A DNA stretch of 64,000 nucleotides. Source: a virus (taxonomy: Duplodnaviria > Caudoviricetes). This document shows positions 27,268 through 49,764 of this stretch, piece by piece; within the stretch, counting starts at the first letter, position 1, and every line of letters starts with the position of its first letter. The notes beneath the pieces are model-generated. The model was not told the DNA's origin, ran no database searches, and saw only the letters and a list, made by a program, of their open reading frames with translations. The stretch is from IMG/VR virus record IMGVR_UViG_3300037453_000316, positions 6,372 through 70,371 of that record; one strand, written 5' to 3'. Position numbers and translations under genes: made by a program.

Positions 27268-28974
27268 TTAGTAGAGATTTACACCCTTACCACACATTAC
27301 TTCAAAAGCATAGTAGTAAAGTTGTGGGTGATGTCCTGCACGAACAATAGCATAACGTGACTTCAATGAAGTTACAGGAGCACCTTCCATACCTTCTGCC
27401 GGATAAGAGAGCTTATCAGCCATCAAGTAAGGCATGAAAACGATACCTGGTTCATTGTCCTTACCCTTACGACCTACTACGATGTGACCATCTGTATAAG
27501 GCATATTCGGGTCAACATAGATGCTTACACCTGAAATTGCACCGATTGGGTAGAGAGAACCAGCGGTCTGGTTGATGGTGTTAGAAAGTGGATAAGCTGT
27601 GAAACCAGCACAATCCTGGATAGCGGCTGCGATACCTGCTGCACATACAGCGAAGGTACCAGCACCTCTACGACCTCTTTGAGCGATGAGTGTAGAAGCA
27701 GCGAGAATCTTCGAGTACAGTCTTCTCTGGATTGTACCGAGAGTTTCAGCACCACCTGCTACGAATACAGTTTCGTATCCTTCTGGCTTATCTTCATTCG
27801 GGTCAACGAAGAAGAATGTGTTAAGGTTGATACCTTCAAATGCAAGAGCTTCCTCGTGGTTCTTCCAACCAAGTTCGAAGATATTGTTCAACAACTCACG
27901 GTTGATGTGCTGTGTCAACTCGTTTACGAGTTCTGCTTCAACCTGTGCGAGAGCGTCAATACCGTAAGCCTTGAGGTCCTGAATCTGTTCACGAGTGATA
28001 GCACCCTTAACCTGAATGGTCTTGGCTTCTACCTTCTCGGTGAATACGTTCAATGACATCATATTACTTGGTGTTGATTCACCAGTTGCTCTGTCATAAG
28101 ACTGTGCTGACATAGGTTTGCCGTTCTTGAATCCAGCACCTGTGAAACCAGGGATGAAATCTTCGAGAGCCTTTACAGTGTCGATGTCGATAACATAGTA
28201 CTTTTCAGCAATCATTTTAGCATCGTCACCCATAAGAGTTTCTGCGAGAGTTATTGATGCACCTTCACCACCGTTCCACTTCTTTTCGTGCAATATCGTC
28301 TTTTCTTTTACTTGGAAGATAGGACGACCATCGATACGACCGAGAGCAACGAAAGTGAGTTCGTAATCACCAACTGTTATTGGAGCCATACCAGGTTGGA
28401 AAGTAGCTTGAAGGTCTTTAAAACTTGCGGCGTGATTTACAGCGTCATAGTCTGAATCAGAATCACTACCATCTGCTGTTGCAAGTGTCAACTTAACCAT
28501 AAGAGGAGCAGTTGTTGATTCATTACCTTCTGGCCATTTACCTTCAAAACGTGGGTTGATGTTAGTCTTACCACCTTCATAAACATAGTCCATATACTGA
28601 AGGATTCCGAGAGGACCTTGCATTGGAACTACTGGAACCAAGTCCAAAGCGATAGTCTGTGCAGCTACCTGTACAGCGAGAGGGAGAAGTGAGAATGGAT
28701 TATCACCACTACCACGTTGTCCGTCGTAACCGTTGTTAGGGTTAGCACCTGGGAAGAACATATCACCCATACCACCAACATTCATTCCTGGGTTAAGGTG
28801 AGCATATCCCATTACTGACTCATTAAGTTGTTTCTTTTCGTACATATCGTGATAAGCACAATATTTACTCATCCAAGTCAACTTGCTTCTATCAGTAATG
28901 CCAGTTGACTCGGTAATAAAACCTGACCAAGCCTTCATTGTTTCGGCTTCGTTCAAAATAACATTTTGTAACAT
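27268..28974 (-). CDS. gp23: Major capsid protein
   Basis: LVPVVPMQGPLG, EKVEAKTIQVK..TREQIQDLKA, ELTQHINRE, YMADK..LKSRYAI; two late promoters upstream. Confidence 0.95.
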   Translation of the reverse strand: MLQNVILNEAETMKAWSGFITESTGITDRSKLTWMSKYCAYHDMYEKKQLNESVMGYAHLNPGMNVGGMGDMFFPGANPNNGYDGQRGSGDNPFSLLPLAVQVAAQTIALDLVPVVPMQGPLGILQYMDYVYEGGKTNINPRFEGKWPEGNESTTAPLMVKLTLATADGSDSDSDYDAVNHAASFKDLQATFQPGMAPITVGDYELTFVALGRIDGRPIFQVKEKTILHEKKWNGGEGASITLAETLMGDDAKMIAEKYYVIDIDTVKALEDFIPGFTGAGFKNGKPMSAQSYDRATGESTPSNMMSLNVFTEKVEAKTIQVKGAITREQIQDLKAYGIDALAQVEAELVNELTQHINRELLNNIFELGWKNHEEALAFEGINLNTFFFVDPNEDKPEGYETVFVAGGAETLGTIQRRLYSKILAASTLIAQRGRRGAGTFAVCAAGIAAAIQDCAGFTAYPLSNTINQTAGSLYPIGAISGVSIYVDPNMPYTDGHIVVGRKGKDNEPGIVFMPYLMADKLSYPAEGMEGAPVTSLKSRYAIVRAGHHPQLYYYAFEVMCGKGVNLY

Positions 28975-29867: not shown

Positions 29868-31934
29868 TTAGTTCTTTCTCATACGGTATTTAATCTGTTC
29901 TGACATTGCAACGAGTCTGTCCGACATACCTTCGTTAACCTTGCCATCACTCTTGTTTGCGGTAACTGCTTCATTTATCTTCTTCATCGGAACTTGTTTC
30001 TCCCTCATATCACGAGTGTTCCAGAAATAAGCTGCCGTTTCGGCGTTATTTATAATGAACATCTTTGATTCTGAAAGGATTTCCTGCTTTCTTTCATCTG
30101 AAAGGTTAGCCCATTTTTCTTTGAGTCTTGCCGGTATGAAGTTTACAAGTTTGAACTCGTTTGAATTTTGAAGAGCCCTTCTCGATTCTTCAATCTGTTC
30201 AGCTTCCTTCTGCTTCAATTCAGCATACTGTGTCTTTACGGTTGAAATGAGATTTCCAAGTTTTTCAGTAAGTTCGGTCTGGTATTTCTTAGCGTCAAAT
30301 TGAGATTTCTTAACAGCGGTTTCTCTCTTATTTACCGTATTAACTTTATTAAATGAATTGTTGCTTTCGTTTATCTTTTCAGCACCTTCCATATTGTTGA
30401 TACTTTCAACTATATAGTTGTTGTGTGAAACGATGTTGTTCATACCTTCAGAAATATAGTTGCTGTATGACTTCAACTGTTCAAATTTCTCATTCAATGA
30501 ATTTGTTTCATCAATCATCTTGTTGCAGTTCTCTGCGATGTAGTCTTGATGTTCAATTGCCTGGTTCAATTTTTCAACGAGATAATTCGAATGTGCTATA
30601 TTCTTGTTCTGCTCTTCTGCAAGCATATTCGAGTAGTCTATCGACTTGTCGAGCATTTCAGAGATGTAGTTCTGATAACCGATTGTGTCATTCAAGTTTT
30701 CAACTATGTAGTCTTGATGTTCAATCATCTTGTTGCAGTTCTCAACTATATAGTCTTGATGGTTAATCATCTTGTTGCAGTTCTCTGCGATGTAGTCCTG
30801 ATGTTCAATCATCTTGTTGCAGTTCTCTGCAATGTAGTCCTGGTGAGAAATTGCATTGTCGAGTTGTTCTGCAAGATAAACAGTGTATTTTTTAAGGTTG
30901 TTGTATCTTTCTTCAACCTCGCCCATCTTTGCATCAACACTATTTGCCACCAAGTTTGAAATAAGTTTGTTATCTGTCTTTCCATCCTCGAAGGCTTCAG
31001 TTGGTTTCAAACCTTCCTTTTCCTTCTTGAATGAATCCAATTCCGTCTTATAATTGGTGATAGCGGATTGCAAATCGGCTATAATTTCCGAAAGATTTTC
31101 TGTATATCTCTGGAAATCTTCAAAAGAAATGTAATTTGCATTATCCATATTATTTGTATTGTTTGTATCGTCTATTGTACCGTTAGAAGCCCTGTTGTTT
31201 GTGTTCTTGTACTGCTGGGTTGCTCCAAACCTATCAGTCTTGTATCCTTCTGAACCCGGTTCAGGAAGAAGTTCAGTATTTGTCTCATAGATTTCAAAGT
31301 TATCCGAACTTGAAATGAGTTTCATACCTTCGTTGACTTTGTTGTAACTTTCATTCAATTCACTGAGGGCTTTTCTTGAAGTTTCTGAAATCAATGATGA
31401 ACCATATCCTTCGTTTACTCTTGATAGAACAGCGTTGGCGAAACCTGGGTCAGCAACCAAATCGTATGTGAAGAGTTGTTGAAGTCTTACTCGTCCTGTT
31501 GATTCGTCAACGGTTCCAGCGGCTCTTGAACTGATATGTAAAGGAATACCGTCCTTTACAAGCGCTTGTGCCTCCTTACCCTTCGTAGTATTCAGAAGAC
31601 GAATCTTTCCAACGATGGCGTTTTTTTGCGGGTCGTATTCAAGACTCTCTATCACATGTGAAGCGTTTGTCAATGAAATCTCATATCCGTGAGGATGGTC
31701 CAGTTCACCGAGAAGGGCGTGATTCTTTATCGTTTCCTTCAATGCTTCTATATGTGGAAGAAAGTCTGCACTTTCATAAATTCTACCATTACGGTTTTTC
31801 TGGTTGAAAGTTGTAAAAATACCGGTAAGAACTATTGAATTTTCGGGTGTTCCGAGATTGTTGACAACAGTCTCGTTGGTATATTTTATATCGGAACCCG
31901 AGCGTTCTACCACTAATACTCTTTTGTCCTTCAT
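29868..31934 (-). CDS. gp21: Prohead protease fused to scaffold/core protein
   Basis: KNRNGRIY, ALLGELDHP, ISSRAAG, YDLVADPG, then a long coiled coil with many [LIV]NE sites. Confidence 0.9.
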   Translation of the reverse strand: MKDKRVLVVERSGSDIKYTNETVVNNLGTPENSIVLTGIFTTFNQKNRNGRIYESADFLPHIEALKETIKNHALLGELDHPHGYEISLTNASHVIESLEYDPQKNAIVGKIRLLNTTKGKEAQALVKDGIPLHISSRAAGTVDESTGRVRLQQLFTYDLVADPGFANAVLSRVNEGYGSSLISETSRKALSELNESYNKVNEGMKLISSSDNFEIYETNTELLPEPGSEGYKTDRFGATQQYKNTNNRASNGTIDDTNNTNNMDNANYISFEDFQRYTENLSEIIADLQSAITNYKTELDSFKKEKEGLKPTEAFEDGKTDNKLISNLVANSVDAKMGEVEERYNNLKKYTVYLAEQLDNAISHQDYIAENCNKMIEHQDYIAENCNKMINHQDYIVENCNKMIEHQDYIVENLNDTIGYQNYISEMLDKSIDYSNMLAEEQNKNIAHSNYLVEKLNQAIEHQDYIAENCNKMIDETNSLNEKFEQLKSYSNYISEGMNNIVSHNNYIVESINNMEGAEKINESNNSFNKVNTVNKRETAVKKSQFDAKKYQTELTEKLGNLISTVKTQYAELKQKEAEQIEESRRALQNSNEFKLVNFIPARLKEKWANLSDERKQEILSESKMFIINNAETAAYFWNTRDMREKQVPMKKINEAVTANKSDGKVNEGMSDRLVAMSEQIKYRMRKN
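30511..30846 (-). repeat. 42-nt (14-aa HQDYIAENCNKMIE) repeat in the scaffold
   Basis: Near-identical copies at 30511, 30721, 30763 and 30805, all in 42-nt register. Confidence 0.85.
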
Positions 31935-43221: not shown

Positions 43222-44694
43222 ATGAGGAACATACTCAATATAGACCAGTTTCTTCTGCTTGAATCGAAGGAGGATAAGACGAGGAGGATGCTAAAGTCAA
43301 GGGGATACGAAAACACTACGGAAATAATAAACGCTGTAAAACACGATTTCTCCGAACTGGAACATTCCGATAGACCGGCCTATAAGTTCCTTTATGCTAT
43401 ATGCCGTATGTATGTCGATGGTGAATTTCGTGACGCCAATGATATATCCACTATGAATTCTATGTTGAAGACCATATCGGTTGAACCTCACTTGTCTGAG
43501 TACGACCATAACCTCAACGGATTAAGTAAAGATGAGATTATCAGAAGATTCACTCCCATACAACAGAAGGAGAATGAGGATGAGATAAACTTCGTTAAAA
43601 GGATGAAGTTCGAGGGGGGTAGCGACTACGAGATAGTAAAGATAGACTCATACAGTCAAGCTGCTAAATATAAAAGGTTTGCTCCTTGGTGTGTTGCCGA
43701 TGAGCAAAGACATTTCGATTCATACTCCTGTGATGGAATAAACCAGTTTTATTTCTGTCTGAAAAGGGGGTTTGAAAGTGTTAAAAGGAATGATACTAAC
43801 GCACCCCTCAACGAGTATGGTCTCTCTATGATTTCAGTCTGTGTCGACTATAATGGAATGCCCCTTTTTGTAACCACTAGATACAACCACGATTTCGACG
43901 GAGAAAACAACGAAGAGTTGTGTAAACCTAGACAAGTCAGCGAAGTGATAAATATGAACTTCTTTGAAGTCTTTAAACCTTCACCGTTGGGTTTGAGATT
44001 GAACAAATATGAAATTAATTCAAAACTTGAAAAAGGCATCGATATCAATTCATTGTTTGACAAAACCTATAAAATAACAGATGGTTTTTATGCAGTCAGT
44101 GTCAAGAAAAAACAATCTCTCGTTTATAAGAACAAACTGATTACAGATTGGTTTGACAAAAATTTATTAGATGTCAAAAAAATAAAACTCATAGGTGAAA
44201 AAGACAACAAACCAATCATTGAATATGACGATGACATATATTTAACAGACAAAAACTTAAGAACAATACCGATTTATTTCAGTGTTGTAAAAGGTAATTT
44301 TGGATGTTCAGTCAATCAACTCGAATCGCTGGAAGGTTGTCCGGAAGAGGTCGGTGGTACTTTTGATTGCAGTGACAATAACTTAAAGTCATTAAAAGGA
44401 GCCCCGAGAAAAGTCGGTGGTAGTTTTATTTGCAATACGAATGACTATCTTACATTACTGGAAGGTTGTCCGGAAGAGGTCGGCAAAAATTTTGACTGTA
44501 GTGGTAATTCATTGGAGTCATTAAAAGGAGCCCCGAGAAAAGTCGGTGGTTATTTTGATTGTTCAATGAACCAACTTAAATCACTGGAAGGTTGTCCGGA
44601 AGAGGTCGGCGGTGATTTTAATTGTAGTTATAACAATTTGACATCACTTGAAGGTGCTCCGAGAGTGGGTGGTAGAATTATAAATAACATATAA
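43222..44694 (+). CDS. Putative internal head protein with C-terminal LRR-like (SLEGCP) repeats
   Basis: MRNILNIDQFLLLES; about 6 repeats of L.SL.G.P..VGG.F.CS.N; late promoter at 43196. Confidence 0.75.
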   Translation: MRNILNIDQFLLLESKEDKTRRMLKSRGYENTTEIINAVKHDFSELEHSDRPAYKFLYAICRMYVDGEFRDANDISTMNSMLKTISVEPHLSEYDHNLNGLSKDEIIRRFTPIQQKENEDEINFVKRMKFEGGSDYEIVKIDSYSQAAKYKRFAPWCVADEQRHFDSYSCDGINQFYFCLKRGFESVKRNDTNAPLNEYGLSMISVCVDYNGMPLFVTTRYNHDFDGENNEELCKPRQVSEVINMNFFEVFKPSPLGLRLNKYEINSKLEKGIDINSLFDKTYKITDGFYAVSVKKKQSLVYKNKLITDWFDKNLLDVKKIKLIGEKDNKPIIEYDDDIYLTDKNLRTIPIYFSVVKGNFGCSVNQLESLEGCPEEVGGTFDCSDNNLKSLKGAPRKVGGSFICNTNDYLTLLEGCPEEVGKNFDCSGNSLESLKGAPRKVGGYFDCSMNQLKSLEGCPEEVGGDFNCSYNNLTSLEGAPRVGGRIINNI

Positions 44695-44733
44695 AAACTT
44701 GACTATGAAAAATATAATCAAATTGAAACAACA

Positions 44734-45042
44734 ATGATTAATAAAGATATAAACGAATGTGACGGAGTGTCCGGTGGTGCAACACCAATGAATGTAGGTG
44801 GAATGGGTGACATAATGTTACCGGGTTCCGGTTCACCGGGTTCCGGTGATATTCCATTACCTGGTCCGACGGGAGGAGTTTATCTGCAAGTACAACCCTT
44901 CGACCAGTTCATCAAGAAATCAAAATGGAAGAAAAGGAAGAAAAGATTCAAGGGAAAAACCACACCAAACTCTGACATATATTCCTATGTGGATGATTTC
45001 AAGACTTATGCAAAAAGAACAGAAAAAAATCTAAATGCTTGA
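44734..45042 (+). CDS. Small protein containing a copy of the major-capsid N-terminal motif
   Basis: INE then PMNVGGMGDIMLPG..GSGDIP, versus MCP LNE then PGMNVGGMGDMFFPG..GSGDNP; basic KKSKWKKRKKR patch. Confidence 0.7.
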   Translation: MINKDINECDGVSGGATPMNVGGMGDIMLPGSGSPGSGDIPLPGPTGGVYLQVQPFDQFIKKSKWKKRKKRFKGKTTPNSDIYSYVDDFKTYAKRTEKNLNA

Positions 45043-46337
45043 TTATGGGAGTATTACTTAATTTGACACAAGAGTATTTCGGAAAGAAAACTAGAACGGA
45101 AGATATGGTTATACATATGGATGGTGTTGAAACGATAGAACACGAATTCATAGACAAATGCGGTAAAAAACAGTATGCTTCATATATCATTAAAGACGGC
45201 GGTTCATATATACTGCCATCCGAACCATTAAGGGAACTGGTAAAAATTATAATCAAAAGAGACGGAAATAAATGCGACTTGAATATCATTGATGTTTCCA
45301 ATGTGGTATGTATGAAAAGTTTGTTTGAAGACTCCGATTTCGATGGAGATATATCGGAGTGGGATGTGAGAAATGTGGAAAATATGGAGGCGATGTTCAA
45401 AAAATCCCATTTCAACGGAGACATTTCAAAATGGGAAACCGTCAAACTGCAAAACATTTGTGAAATATTCTGTGAATCTTCTTTCACGGGTGACATAAGC
45501 GGATGGGATGTATCAAAAGTAACCGTTATGAGTGGCGCTTTTCAAAAATGTCCCTTCGACGGTGATATTTCAAAATGGAAGACTGGTAGTGTAAGATTTA
45601 CATCCTATATGTTTGAGGAATCTTCTTTCACAGGTGACATAAGTGAATGGGATGTAAGCAATGTGGAAAGAATGTCGGGGATGTTCAAAAAATCTCCTTT
45701 CAACGGTGATATTTCAAGATGGAAAGTCGGAAAAGTGGAAACTATGTCGAATATGTTTGAGGAATCTTCTTTCACAGGTGACATAAGCGAATGGGATGTA
45801 AGCAACGTAAACGATATGTCGGATATGTTTAGAGAGTCTTCTTTTAACGGAGACATTTCAAAATGGAAAGTCGGAAAAGTCAAGAGCATGGCCAATATGT
45901 TTCGGAAATCCCATTTCACGGGTGACATAAGCGACTGGAATGTAAGCAGTGTGGAGAAAATGTTATTTATGTTTTCTGATTCTCCTTTCAACGGTGATAT
46001 TTCAAGATGGAATGTCGAAAATGTGAAAGATATGGCATTTATGTTCGCAAATTCCGACTTCAAGGGAGATATAAGTCAATGGAAGACATATAGCCTGACT
46101 GATGCGGGTGGTATGTTTGACGGTTCTTCATTTAATGGAGATATAAGTGGCTGGTATGTAAAGAAACTAAAAAACGTGAAAGTTATGTTCCTTTTTGACA
46201 AAGAGTTTGACCAAGACCTTTCCGGATGGGAGTTTGAAAATCTAGAAGAACTTGAAATTGACGATTTAGTATTTTCCGGTACACCGCTTGAAAAAAATCC
46301 ACCACAATGGTATTTGAAAAGAAAGGCAATCTCATAA
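45039..46337 (+). CDS. BspA/DUF285-type repeat protein
   Basis: About 14 copies of a 22-aa unit F.GDIS.W.V..V..M..MF..S. Confidence 0.85.
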   Translation: MIMGVLLNLTQEYFGKKTRTEDMVIHMDGVETIEHEFIDKCGKKQYASYIIKDGGSYILPSEPLRELVKIIIKRDGNKCDLNIIDVSNVVCMKSLFEDSDFDGDISEWDVRNVENMEAMFKKSHFNGDISKWETVKLQNICEIFCESSFTGDISGWDVSKVTVMSGAFQKCPFDGDISKWKTGSVRFTSYMFEESSFTGDISEWDVSNVERMSGMFKKSPFNGDISRWKVGKVETMSNMFEESSFTGDISEWDVSNVNDMSDMFRESSFNGDISKWKVGKVKSMANMFRKSHFTGDISDWNVSSVEKMLFMFSDSPFNGDISRWNVENVKDMAFMFANSDFKGDISQWKTYSLTDAGGMFDGSSFNGDISGWYVKKLKNVKVMFLFDKEFDQDLSGWEFENLEELEIDDLVFSGTPLEKNPPQWYLKRKAIS

Positions 46338-46364
46338 ATAACTTATCAACAAACACAATTTATT

Positions 46365-48143
46365 ATGAACTATTACAATAAAGGATATATGCCATTGAAC
46401 GAAAGCAAGAAGGCTGTTGATATACAAGTGGTTTTTCTTAGTTCGAGGGCAGAAAAGACAACAAAGAGTTCAAACTCTATGTTTTTCTTCGAGGATGCCG
46501 CAAAGAAAGCGGGTCTCAAAATGGTGACGATAGACCCGAGTTCATCCTCAATAAGAAAGAACAGTGAAGATTCGTACAGCGTCATCGAAGAAAACGGTGG
46601 AAGTAAGAAGACATATGTCTTGAAACCATCGAACACGATAGTTGTTCCGAGAAGAACGGTTTTAAAAAACAGCGAATCGAAAGAGTTTATGCAGGACTTA
46701 CAAACTTACGGGTTCTTCTGTCTGAATACATTGGATTCAATTGAAACCTGTGAGGACAAATTCTTGACATACAAGAAACTCAAAAATTCGGGAGTTCCAA
46801 CTCCAAAGACTACCGTTATAACATCGTCTTCAATGAACAAACTTGAAGACAAGGTTCAGACCATCGGAGGCAAATTCCCGATAGTATGTAAGATACTGAA
46901 CGGAACACAAGGTGTCGGTGTGTTTATCATCGACTCTATGATGAGTCTCCGTTCAACACTTCAGACCATGTTCAAGATTTCACCGAAATCTGATATCATC
47001 CTTCAGGAGAAGATTGACTCCGACTATGATTTGAGAATACACGTTATGTACAATGGTTTTGAAAGAATGACTTCCGGTCTTGACGGTTTCGAAATAATCG
47101 GATGTATGAAGAGAAACCAGCTCGCCGGCGATTTCAGAAGCAACTATTCTCTCGGTTCAACTGCCGAAAAGGGAACATTGACACCGGAACAGGAGAAAAT
47201 CGCAAAGATGGCCGCAAAGGCTACGGGTTGTCGTTGGTGTGGTGTAGACTTGATTGTATCAGGAACAACAAAGCAGCCTTATGTAATAGAGGTTAACTCA
47301 TCACCAGGCACAAAAGGTATCACTACCGCCGCCGGTGATGATGTCGTAGGAACTCTGTTCAATATGTTCAAGGACTTCAAGTACACGAAATATGAATCCG
47401 AACAGATTGGAAGTTACGAAACAATCACCATAAAGGATATAACGAAGGAAAATCCTAACCTCGATGTTGCAATAAGATTTGATTCCGACAAGATGTTTAC
47501 AGAACTCGAATGTTCATCGGTAAATGCAAAGGATGAAGATGTTTCATTTGTATTCAACGGAGTAACATATAACAGAGAACTTGTGGGTTTGAAGAAAAAC
47601 GAACCTATGGTCGAGTTGAACCTCAAATTCAACGGAACAATATACAAGAACGAACTTGTGATATTGAAACAGATAAACGACAATATCAACAAGAACCATA
47701 TGGTCGGAGGTTCAAAGCTCATCAACCGTATAGCCAACAACGCCGTCATCATAGACCAGCCGTTCTATCTGACCGACAACACAACGGGTTTTGATGTTCC
47801 GAAGAAACCGATAGACGAATCGCTTCTTTTCGAAAGCAAACTGGATATGGCGTTTAAGGTGAGCAAGAACGAAGTGAATCTTATGAACCTCAAAACTATA
47901 TTAAACACATTCGTAAGCGGTACGAGAAACGAATATGTGAAGGGAAAGTTCGGAATAGACGCAACGGATTCAAACAACTGGGAAATCAAGTATAACAACC
48001 AGCCTTTCCTTGAGTGTAAAAACACAGACATCAAGTTTATGCACAATTCGTTCCCATATGAAATCGCTTGCAAAATCGCCGGTGTAATAGAATCCATACT
48101 TCCTACGGAAGTCGATATGTCGGTATATCCGGAAAACGAATAA
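46365..48143 (+). CDS. rimK: RimK-family ATP-grasp ligase fused to a degenerate retropepsin-like domain
   Basis: CEDKFLT, FPIVCKILNGTQGVGV, LQEKID, DFRSNYSLG, GVDLI..EVNSSPG; C-terminal domain aligns with the N-terminal half of 48384..49328. Confidence 0.88.
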   Translation: MNYYNKGYMPLNESKKAVDIQVVFLSSRAEKTTKSSNSMFFFEDAAKKAGLKMVTIDPSSSSIRKNSEDSYSVIEENGGSKKTYVLKPSNTIVVPRRTVLKNSESKEFMQDLQTYGFFCLNTLDSIETCEDKFLTYKKLKNSGVPTPKTTVITSSSMNKLEDKVQTIGGKFPIVCKILNGTQGVGVFIIDSMMSLRSTLQTMFKISPKSDIILQEKIDSDYDLRIHVMYNGFERMTSGLDGFEIIGCMKRNQLAGDFRSNYSLGSTAEKGTLTPEQEKIAKMAAKATGCRWCGVDLIVSGTTKQPYVIEVNSSPGTKGITTAAGDDVVGTLFNMFKDFKYTKYESEQIGSYETITIKDITKENPNLDVAIRFDSDKMFTELECSSVNAKDEDVSFVFNGVTYNRELVGLKKNEPMVELNLKFNGTIYKNELVILKQINDNINKNHMVGGSKLINRIANNAVIIDQPFYLTDNTTGFDVPKKPIDESLLFESKLDMAFKVSKNEVNLMNLKTILNTFVSGTRNEYVKGKFGIDATDSNNWEIKYNNQPFLECKNTDIKFMHNSFPYEIACKIAGVIESILPTEVDMSVYPENE

Positions 48144-48216
48144 CAACAATACCAAATAGAGACTCGAACAAATGAAAATGGACCGGAGACGCCGGTCCAT
48201 TTTCATAAATAATGAT

Positions 48217-48387
48217 ATGGGATGTAACTGTAATAAAAACGATTCAATTCCTCTTTCTGTAAAAAAGGAAAAGAGGAGAGGCCTTAAAGAGAAGATAAAT
48301 GAAATAAAGAAACTCTGGAAGGAAAGTAAAACTGTTGAAACATCGGGAAGCGTCACTGTAAACAAAGATGAACTTGGATTCAAATGA
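48217..48387 (+). CDS. Small basic late protein (MGCNC...)
   Basis: In-frame ATG at 48217 just after the late promoter 48204-48211; INE site. Confidence 0.6.
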   Translation: MGCNCNKNDSIPLSVKKEKRRGLKEKINEIKKLWKESKTVETSGSVTVNKDELGFK

Positions 48388-49328
48388 AGAGAATAAAGAC
48401 ATATGAGGAATTTATAAACGACAATCTAACAGAATCATCAAAGAGGAACGGTAAGGAAGTTATTGGTTTCAAGGAAGTGGTGGAAATTGTCGGTATCGGA
48501 AATATGAAGGCGAAATTCGACACCGGTAATACGGCCTATTCGGCAATCATAGTACAGGATTATTATGAAAAGGACGGCAAGGTGAAGTTTGAAATCAACA
48601 AAAAGGAATACGAATATCCCGTTGAAAAGCATGTCAGAATATGGCATCACGGAAAATCTACGGAGAGACCCGTGATAAAGGTTGATTTGATTTTCAACGG
48701 AACGACATACAAGGATGAACTTGTTGACTTGAAAATTTCGGATTTGACCGGAACGAAAAATTACAGAAGCAGAATGCTCATTTGCAAGAAGTTTATGGAA
48801 AAGGCCAATGTTCTCATTGACCCGAGCAAGGACTTCAAGCTCACCGATAAGAAAGATATTGACAAACCGAAAAAGAAAAAGAAGAAAATAAACGAAGGTC
48901 TTGAGGAAAACCCCGTATCTATGACCACAAAAGGTACGAGTGACGCCATAGACATAGATTTCAAGATTGGAAGCGATATAATCGGAGGAGCGATTATAAC
49001 ATTCCAGTATATTGACGGTATTATAGATGAATATTTGGAATCCGTAGATGATTTCGATGAAAGCGTTTTCAGAAAATTCGATAGTAACCAGAAACTATAC
49101 AACCTTGAAGACTTCTGGATAAACAAGGATTTCAGGGGAAAAGGTTATTCAAAACTCTGTCTTGAAAGAATGATGGAGAAATACGGAGACAAACAAATGG
49201 TACTCCGTGCCTTTCCGGATGGAGGGGTAGATGAAGACACCCTTGTAAGAATATATAGTAGACACGGTTTTGTTGTGTTGCAACCCACAATGAACGATGG
49301 AACAATAATGGGAAAATTTATAAAATAA
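48384..49328 (+). CDS. RimB-like retropepsin protease fused to a GNAT acetyltransferase; capsid-targeting-like N-terminus
   Basis: MKRIKTYEEFIND..LTES; KAKFDTGN..SAI; linker KKINEG; GNAT motif A FRGKGYS and YSRHGF. Confidence 0.8.
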   Translation: MKRIKTYEEFINDNLTESSKRNGKEVIGFKEVVEIVGIGNMKAKFDTGNTAYSAIIVQDYYEKDGKVKFEINKKEYEYPVEKHVRIWHHGKSTERPVIKVDLIFNGTTYKDELVDLKISDLTGTKNYRSRMLICKKFMEKANVLIDPSKDFKLTDKKDIDKPKKKKKKINEGLEENPVSMTTKGTSDAIDIDFKIGSDIIGGAIITFQYIDGIIDEYLESVDDFDESVFRKFDSNQKLYNLEDFWINKDFRGKGYSKLCLERMMEKYGDKQMVLRAFPDGGVDEDTLVRIYSRHGFVVLQPTMNDGTIMGKFIK

Positions 49329-49340
49329 CAAATAACTATA

Positions 49341-49370
49341 AAAAAGAGTGAGGTTTTCCTCACTCTTTTT
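49341..49370. terminator. Bidirectional intrinsic terminator
   Basis: AAAAAGAGTGAGG-TTTT-CCTCACTCTTTTT. Confidence 0.85.
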
Positions 49371-49764
49371 ATTCTTCCTCATCACAATCCTCTTCATCAT
49401 AACAGTAATCAAGTGCTTCACTGATTAAAGAAAATTCTTCAAAACCAAGAACTCTATTTTCAGAAACAGAAGCTGGTGTGTATATGGCATGTTCCTCGAT
49501 AACACCCATAAACCTTTCTTCTGCAAAACATCTGAAAGATTCCTTTTCCATATCGAAATATGTAACAAAACCTTCTCTTGGTGGTCTCTTTGTACCCGAC
49601 TTTGCGTCAACCGTGCCTATGATAGCGGCGATGATTTTTGGATTTCTCGTTCCGAAAGCGATTCTTGTTGAACCGTCCTTTTTTTCGAAAACAAACTTAA
49701 CTATATCATCACGTAACATTGTTATAAAACTCGATATCGAGACCATTCTTCCTGTTTCTTCCAT
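49369..49764 (-). CDS. DUF2693/WYL-like SH3-fold phage protein
   Basis: VKFVFEKKDGSTRIAFGTRN...VTYFDMEKESFRCF. Confidence 0.75.
   Translation of the reverse strand: MEETGRMVSISSFITMLRDDIVKFVFEKKDGSTRIAFGTRNPKIIAAIIGTVDAKSGTKRPPREGFVTYFDMEKESFRCFAEERFMGVIEEHAIYTPASVSENRVLGFEEFSLISEALDYCYDEEDCDEEE

Follow-up and report, generated by a model that had tools for sequence, protein, structure and literature searches.

A conserved late operon of T4-related megaphages encodes a RimK-family ligase, a small basic protein and a RimB-like peptidase that may be head cargo

Why should a large phage make a RimK-type ligase together with a RimB-like peptidase late in infection, and would these enzymes act in the cell that produces the particles or in the next one to be infected? 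The question is raised by a stretch of 64,000 nt of the virus record IMGVR_UViG_3300037453_000316 (the window, to which all coordinates refer), whose source is, by sequence, a large T4-related myovirus. Two genes of the window, designated gene A and gene B, and a small open reading frame (ORF) between them form a late operon that is conserved in T4-related megaphages and has three products: a RimK-family ligase, a 56-amino-acid (aa) basic protein and a RimB-like peptidase. Because the region had no megablast match among 50,697 phage records, the identification was made by protein searches. Homologues fall into more than 200 clusters for gene A and 178 for gene B, on contigs of up to ~400 kb. 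The order gene A–small ORF–gene B is kept in 13 of 14 related megaphage loci, and the proteins of the 14 main-clade loci are 62–84% identical. RimK appears in phage papers only as an annotation, and our literature searches turned up no paper that describes RimK/RimB as cargo of the phage head.

Gene A is built from an N-terminal extension, a RimK domain, a middle domain and a C-terminal domain, and is preceded by a late-promoter-like motif. In the motifs given below, the slash marks a putative cut; pLDDT is the predicted local distance difference test score.

46333-46340, plus strand: CATAAATA, late-promoter-like motif of gene A, of a type enriched in the window and found upstream of structural genes
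46365-48143, plus strand: gene A, 592 aa
46365-46403, plus strand: 13-aa N-terminal extension ending LNE/S, a candidate propeptide on the basis of its conservation
46404-47369, plus strand: RimK-type ATP-grasp alpha-L-glutamate ligase domain, from its PF08443 match and PDB relatives
47382-47774, plus strand: degenerate RimB-like (PF05618-fold) retropepsin domain, residues ~340-470, with an F-D-S-D-K motif (D373 codon at 47481-47483)
47775-47855, plus strand: disordered linker (pLDDT <50) with two [LIV]-x-E/[SG] motifs, IDE/S and LFE/S
47856-48140, plus strand: C-terminal domain, residues ~498-592 (pLDDT ~90), predicted as a helix, 4-5 strands and a helix

Residues 130–331 of gene A match PF08443 with an E value of 1e-30 (107 bits against a cut-off of 21), and the nearest solved relatives are the Pseudomonas and E. 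coli RimK enzymes (PDB 7qyr and 4iwx; E 2.6e-24 and 1.9e-22). Judged from these matches, gene A carries a RimK-type ATP-grasp ligase domain. An earlier, sequence-only reading of this DNA had described the protein as a RimK ATP-grasp ligase with its own late promoter and an N-terminal LNE/S motif, and each of these elements is borne out by the Pfam match, by the CATAAATA motif at 46333–46340 and by the N-terminal alignment. Residues K6, G7, Y8, L11, E13, S14, K15 and K16 are invariant in 20 relatives, and the LNE/S motif is present in 62 of 63 sequences.

The middle domain of gene A is a second RimB-like domain that has lost its catalytic motif. Its similarity to the gene B protease is detected by BLASTP over the FNGT.YK.ELV block (E 4e-5). 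Pfam alone is blind to it, finding no family in the isolated middle domain or in the N-terminal part of gene A, so that the homology came from profile–profile comparison and fold only: hhalign aligns the domain with the gene B family over 116 columns (probability 96.3%, E 1.6e-9), and the AlphaFold2 (AF2) model of the domain matches the solved structures 9g58, 9g59 and 2pma (Foldseek E 2e-6), with VIA Z scores of 11.9 for 9g59 and 11.3 for 2pma. The suggestion made from the sequence alone, that the RimK protein contains a degraded retropepsin copy alignable with gene B, thus stands. The T/S-G of the motif is lost in all 20 aligned relatives (D-S-D here; D-D-N, D-E-N and similar elsewhere). The Asp itself persists in at least 90% of relatives, with Asn instead in some, and many other positions are invariant, which indicates a conserved and constrained pseudo-peptidase, not a decaying one.

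What might a dead peptidase domain do when it is permanently attached to a ligase? Bacterial RimB binds RimK, raises its ATPase activity ~fourfold and is needed for the synthesis of free poly-alpha-glutamate (PMC11957791). By analogy, the fused RimB-like domain is most likely either a permanent RimK-binding or RimK-activating module or a dimer partner of the free peptidase. Retropepsins are dimers, and the pseudo-domain is closer to gene B (28%) than to the RimB-like domains of two other phages (18–20%). These belong to YerA41_066 of Yersinia phage YerA41 and Mosig_00005 of Pelagibacter phage Mosig, in which a RimK domain 33–41% identical to that of gene A is followed by a PF05618 domain. The middle domain of gene A aligns with these PF05618 domains; unlike it, both retain FDTGN. 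The fusions lack a third domain and are accompanied neither by a separate peptidase gene nor by an MGCNC ORF (the small ORF described below). YerA41, moreover, is not T4-like.

Between the middle and C-terminal domains, the Glu residues of the two linker motifs are conserved, E485 in 60 and E490 in 53 of 63 sequences. The well-ordered C-terminal domain has best structural matches of Z <5, gave no lead in the ESM Atlas and shows a weak match to phrog_36749. It is absent from one divergent relative (L018), whose 489-aa ligase (L018:5947-7570) has the pseudo-peptidase domain and no third domain. The leader of the L018 ligase is 21 aa long (MKKF...ITE/SKK), a 50-aa MGCNC ORF follows the ligase directly, and there is no intact peptidase gene within 6 kb.

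Gene B retains what the middle domain of gene A has lost.

48384-49328, plus strand: gene B, 314 aa, comprising leader, peptidase, Lys-rich linker and GNAT
48384-48434, plus strand: leader MKRIKTYEEFINDNLTE/S, of the T4 capsid-targeting type from its likeness to the T4 ipI, ipII and ipIII starts
48453-48833, plus strand: RimB-like retropepsin-fold aspartic peptidase domain, with D46-T47-G48 at 48519-48527
48834-48914, plus strand: Lys-rich disordered linker (pLDDT <50) with an INE/G junction motif
48915-49325, plus strand: GNAT-fold acyltransferase domain, assigned by fold match

The peptidase domain scores 30.2 bits with PF05618, whose cut-off is 27; gene B has no PHROGs family. D46, G48 and N49 are invariant, and position 47 is T or S in all relatives. 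The modelled fold matches 9g59, 9g58 and 2pma (Foldseek E 4e-7 to 5e-6, TM scores 0.62–0.69; for 9g59, E 4e-7 and TM 0.66). By sequence and by model, then, gene B is a RimB-like (PF05618) retropepsin-fold peptidase with an intact D-T-G motif, in keeping with the original description of a leader-bearing KFDTGN retropepsin. RimB itself is a retropepsin-like endopeptidase that strips glutamates from polyglutamylated S6, cuts internal Glu runs and requires D31 for activity (PMC11957791), and RimB and RloA both cut poly-Glu (PMC11957791, PMC11957051). RloA/RloA2 and Lpg0085 (9g58, 9g59 and 2pma) are the closest solved folds for the active as well as the degenerate phage domain; the phage domains differ from the Rlo proteins, which bear signal peptides and work outside the cytoplasm, in lacking such a peptide and in their linkage to a RimK-type ligase.

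The C-terminal part of gene B had been read as a GNAT fused to the retropepsin. This assignment rests on fold, with spermidine acetyltransferase and Naa60 at E ~5e-5 and RimL at ~1e-3 in Foldseek, although the domain falls below the Pfam cut-offs (PF13508, 20.7 bits versus 27; PF00583, 17.9 versus 20.7). An R-G-K-G-Y-S loop, as read from the sequence, lies where the acyl-CoA-binding loop is expected. The GNAT occurs in only ~16 of the 178 gene B homologue clusters, those of the nearest relatives; ~160 clusters comprise proteins of ~180 aa without it, and the others have unrelated C-terminal domains. Since most homologues do without it, the GNAT is a clade-specific add-on. The idea of a ligase, peptidase and GNAT kit therefore needs qualification: the RimK/RimB-type pair and the GNAT are present, but the kit is not a fixed one. 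The junction itself is conserved, in that all fused relatives have KKKK-(I, V or M)-N-E/S where the C-terminal domain begins; unfused ones end in a Lys run.

What the sequence-only reading had seen of the two genes is confirmed, with additions. It overlooked the third domain of gene A as well as three elements of the intergenic region, namely a hairpin, a second CATAAATA motif and the ORF for the small basic protein.

48172-48206, plus strand: 15-bp hairpin after gene A (-24.5 kcal/mol, z -7.3), a terminator or processing site
48204-48211, plus strand: second CATAAATA motif, ending 5 nt before the ATG of the small ORF
48217-48387, plus strand: 56-aa basic ORF, starting MGCNC and ending KDELGFK, its stop overlapping the ATG of gene B

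All the related loci examined, L018 among them, have the small ORF downstream of gene A. It abuts gene A in most loci and is 660–903 nt away in two; in P0110 it is read through into gene B. The hairpin is confined to loci in which the small ORF is separated from gene A. Likewise, the second CATAAATA motif, with its start at -12/-13, is found in seven loci, that of the window included, in which the small ORF is detached, and is missing where the two abut. Because this motif ends only 5 nt before the ATG in the window and in six other loci, the small-ORF transcript may be leaderless or nearly so.

The constancy of the small ORF bears on one alternative explanation of the operon. Graspetide clusters of the microviridin type resemble this set of an ATP-grasp enzyme, a small peptide, a protease and a GNAT. 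The products might accordingly form a pathway for a ribosomally synthesized and post-translationally modified peptide (RiPP), in which the 56-aa MGCNC peptide is modified by the ATP-grasp enzyme, trimmed by the peptidase and acylated by the GNAT, and the presence of the small ORF after the ligase even in L018, with no gene B nearby, would fit such a pathway. The small protein, which has no Pfam or PHROGs family, is however conserved over its whole length and does not show a conserved leader with a variable core. In addition, the ligase is nearest to the RimK type, with no graspetide ligase among its PDB matches; the peptidase family is tied specifically to RimK and poly-Glu; and most relatives lack the GNAT. 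Given a RimK-like ligase and a peptide conserved over its full length, we consider the graspetide-like reading very improbable.

Late expression of the module is supported by the enrichment of its promoter motif and by the conservation of that motif. The window contains 32 copies of the motif [CT]ATAAATA where 9.5 would be expected. The motif, a late promoter motif of the TATAAATA type as in T4, sits 20–30 nt upstream of the sheath, portal, protease, capsid and other structural genes. Upstream of gene A it starts 30–35 nt before the ATG in 14 of 14 main-clade loci. The pattern of promoter motifs, together with the same gene order in 13 of the 14 loci, indicates that gene A, the small ORF and gene B make up one late unit. 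A scan for sigma-70-type promoters gave fewer sites than shuffled sequences, and host-type promoters were rejected.

In bacteria, Pseudomonas RimABK and RimBK hybrids such as Desulfotalea DP2392 likewise combine a RimK ATP-grasp ligase with a D-T-G PF05618 peptidase, and the two can be fused, as in the RimB–RimK hybrids of bacteria (PMC11957791). The phage module differs from these systems in being encoded by a phage, expressed late and without RimA. Its fusion has RimK first and RimB second, whereas the bacterial hybrids have RimB before RimK, and its fused copy has lost the catalytic motif while a second, free copy keeps it. The module also adds a C-terminal domain, the 56-aa basic protein, the GNAT, and leader and cut-site motifs of the T4 type.

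These last additions suggest where the enzymes might act. In T4, the internal proteins IPI–III and Alt carry a capsid-targeting sequence, are processed by gp21 and are ejected with the DNA. The gene B leader is nearly the IPII/IPIII tag: its N-terminus, MKRIKTYEEFI...LTE/S, closely resembles MKTYQEFIAE/A of those two proteins, and T4 ipI starts with MKTFKEF...ITE/A. Nearly all gene B relatives begin with M[IL]KKF[DE][ED][YF]I followed by x-E/S, and the leader is kept in more than 40 relatives. The leader of gene A is not of this type and has the LNE/S motif only. The phage also possesses, as T4 does, a gp21-family protease and a gp23/gp20 head module, represented in the window by a Portal_T4 portal, a Gp23 major capsid protein and a Peptidase_S77 prohead protease.

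29868-31934, minus strand: prohead protease gene of the gp21 family (Peptidase_S77 PF03420, E 2.4e-10; phrog_207, head maturation protease)
3632, 4201, 4483, 14121, 15628, 21334 and 43222, plus strand, and 11340, 26369, 36700 and 56260, minus strand: starts of other leader-bearing genes

The gp21-family protease is the enzyme predicted to process the leaders and linkers of genes A and B, whose Glu-ending motifs fit this enzyme; the predicted cuts lie just before S14 and about S486 or S491 of gene A, and before S18 and G172 of gene B. The capsid protein has Q-L-N-E/S at residue 52 (28816-28830, minus strand), the expected position of its maturation cut, and the same LNE/S recurs in gene A at residue 13. 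At least 11 other proteins of the window have a T4-capsid-targeting-like leader (for example MIKNFDEFIIE/S, MGYIKKYEEFINE/A and MRNILNIDQFLLLE/S), all of them on late units with the CATAAATA motif, a set that suggests a very large head-cargo repertoire.

Related leaders are found on RimK proteins elsewhere. The RimK(-RimB) proteins of Mosig and of Methylophilales phage Melnitz, two cultured T4-like phages, open with similar leaders. Six metagenome polyproteins of 843–1223 aa (P0245–P0250) join RimK and an intact DTGN PF05618 peptidase to further modules, among them a nucleotidyltransferase-like motif (FGRFNPPT.GH) in four; three of the six (P0245, P0249 and P0250) open with leaders, MISFEEFISE/S, MIRKFSEHSTQLTE/A and MKSFNQILSE/A. 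The YerA41 RimK–RimB fusion, annotated as 'ribosomal protein modification protein', was found in purified particles by liquid chromatography–tandem mass spectrometry (PMC7354516). From the T4-like leader of gene B, the gp21-family protease, the conserved x-E/S motifs and this detection in particles, delivery of the module by the virion is a reasonable inference, stronger for gene B than for gene A. The sequence-only interpretation thus finds partial support: the pairing of a writer with an eraser, and its late and leader-bearing character, are well grounded, and the further suggestions, of S6 or defence proteins as targets, of action at entry and of heterodimerisation between the dead domain and the active protease, may be taken as hypotheses.

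The reading that we propose, and to which we give an even chance, is that the products are late-made head cargo that is packaged, cut by the prohead protease, ejected with the DNA and active in the next host. The proteins would be made late in infection, and at least the peptidase would be drawn into the prohead; the ligase would probably follow, by means of its own LNE/S leader or by binding the peptidase. The prohead protease would then trim the leaders and cut the proteins into domains, which would enter the next host together with the ejected DNA. In that host, the ligase would add alpha-linked glutamates to the C-terminus of a protein or make free poly-glutamate, the peptidase would trim the glutamate product, and the GNAT would acylate a target.

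Several observations weigh against this proposal. Motifs as short as x-E/S occur commonly; the amphipathic F-E-E-F-I stretch of the T4 tag is missing from gene A, and the conservation of the gene A N-terminus is unexceptional, as the whole protein is conserved. Cyanophage RimK homologues have no obvious leader, and the Mosig gene is placed among replication genes. In YerA41 the homologue belongs to the middle phase of expression, and among the 63 proteins listed for the YerA41 particles were also polymerases, helicases and ribonucleotide reductase (PMC7354516), so that contamination of those particles is possible. As for the reaction, gene A scores 133.8 bits with TIGR00768, just under the RimK-family threshold of 143.4, and 87.1 bits with the S6-ligase equivalog NF007764, far under its cut-off of 331. 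Because of the latter, in which the phage ligase differs from the bacterial S6 ligases, its substrate may not be S6.

Alternatively, the enzymes might be an unpackaged auxiliary pair that works late in the producing cell, remodelling host ribosomes (by glutamylation and trimming of S6) or the glutamate and poly-glutamate pools in favour of late translation, with the N-terminal motifs incidental or otherwise used. Bacterial RimK and RimB do act on ribosomes in the cytoplasm, and the middle-phase timing in YerA41, the replication module of Mosig, the leaderless cyanophage homologues and the want of a canonical tag on gene A all point the same way. Yet a function confined to the producing cell leaves unexplained why the gene B leader is so close to the T4 tag and is kept in more than 40 relatives, why every leader-bearing gene of the window is on a late unit, and why conserved cut-site motifs stand exactly at domain junctions; nor is there much obvious gain from remodelling ribosomes at the very end of infection. 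On balance we regard action in the producing cell as rather unlikely.

The proposal of injected head cargo can be carried further, to a more specific form. The tag of gene B could carry the ligase into the head by way of the dead domain, so that S6 or a defence factor of the host is glutamylated before the phage expresses its own genes, with the peptidase and the GNAT tuning or extending the modification. We put forward this form only tentatively and think it unlikely.

A different use of the same activities would direct them at components of the phage itself. The ligase, held active by its RimB-like domain, might glutamylate head or cargo proteins of the phage, or make poly-alpha-glutamate that is packaged as a polyanion, while the peptidase sets the length of the tails. 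RimB stimulates the synthesis of free poly-Glu by RimK, and the Lys-rich peptidase tail would be a complement to such a polyanion. The convergent neighbour of gene B (49369-49764, minus strand) is, moreover, alone in the window in having a strongly acidic tail ending EEE, and an acidic Glu-ending tail is kept in close relatives. That neighbour, however, adjoins the module in the nearest relatives only; in the wider clade, the phage proteins beside the module include no conserved one with an S6-like EE terminus; and the argument is inferential throughout. Modification of the phage's own components thus appears improbable to us.

The neighbour is of some interest in itself. It has a WYL_2 fold (an Sm-like SH3 barrel), a late motif and the C-terminus D-E-E-E, and one form of it in close relatives opens with MFMKKVNE/S. 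It is possible, as a minor lead, that this protein is a substrate of the adjacent ligase.

Genes A and B close a plus-strand block (43222-49328) that has minus-strand genes on both sides and ends in a hairpin.

49341-49370, both strands: bidirectional terminator hairpin that ends the plus-strand late block, with a 13-bp stem and T runs on both strands

Ahead of gene A (43222-46337), this block encodes two repeat proteins, one of 490 aa that bears a leader and has leucine-rich-like repeats, the other of 432 aa and of the DUF285 (BspA-like) type (PF03382, E 1e-116). A 102-aa protein (44734-45042, plus strand) has I-N-E/C and, 11 residues on, the sequence M-N-V-G-G-M-G-D; the same sequence stands 13 residues past the probable cut of the capsid protein. 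The prohead protease ORF is 688 aa long, with the Peptidase_S77 match limited to residues 33–150; the long stretch outside the match may represent a scaffold or core protein fused to the protease.

If the proposal of injected head cargo is right, how would this cargo compare with that of T4? Alt-type ADP-ribosylation is the classic protein-modifying activity brought in with the DNA of T4-type phages, and the cargo of the present phage would, like Alt, include a protein-modifying enzyme. It would differ in kind, being predicted to consist of a glutamate ligase, an aspartic peptidase and a GNAT and not of an ADP-ribosyltransferase or small basic proteins. It would differ also in form, since the candidate cargo proteins, known here from their sequences, are multi-domain with putative internal cut sites.

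Whatever its site of action, the module is widespread: its homologue clusters in megaphages number in the hundreds, and marine T4-like phages have related fusions and polyproteins that bear leaders. Its dead RimB domain, permanently fused to RimK, is a natural experiment on the regulation of RimK. The leaders described above suggest that the T4 capsid-targeting tag has been kept far beyond the Tevenvirinae, where it would help to predict which proteins of uncultured phages are injected. Should the more specific form of the proposal be true, the module would be the first virion-delivered writer and eraser of glutamylation, with a pseudo-protease in the new role of packaging adaptor. If RimK/RimB are head cargo, poly-glutamylation would join ADP-ribosylation as an injected chemistry of host takeover.

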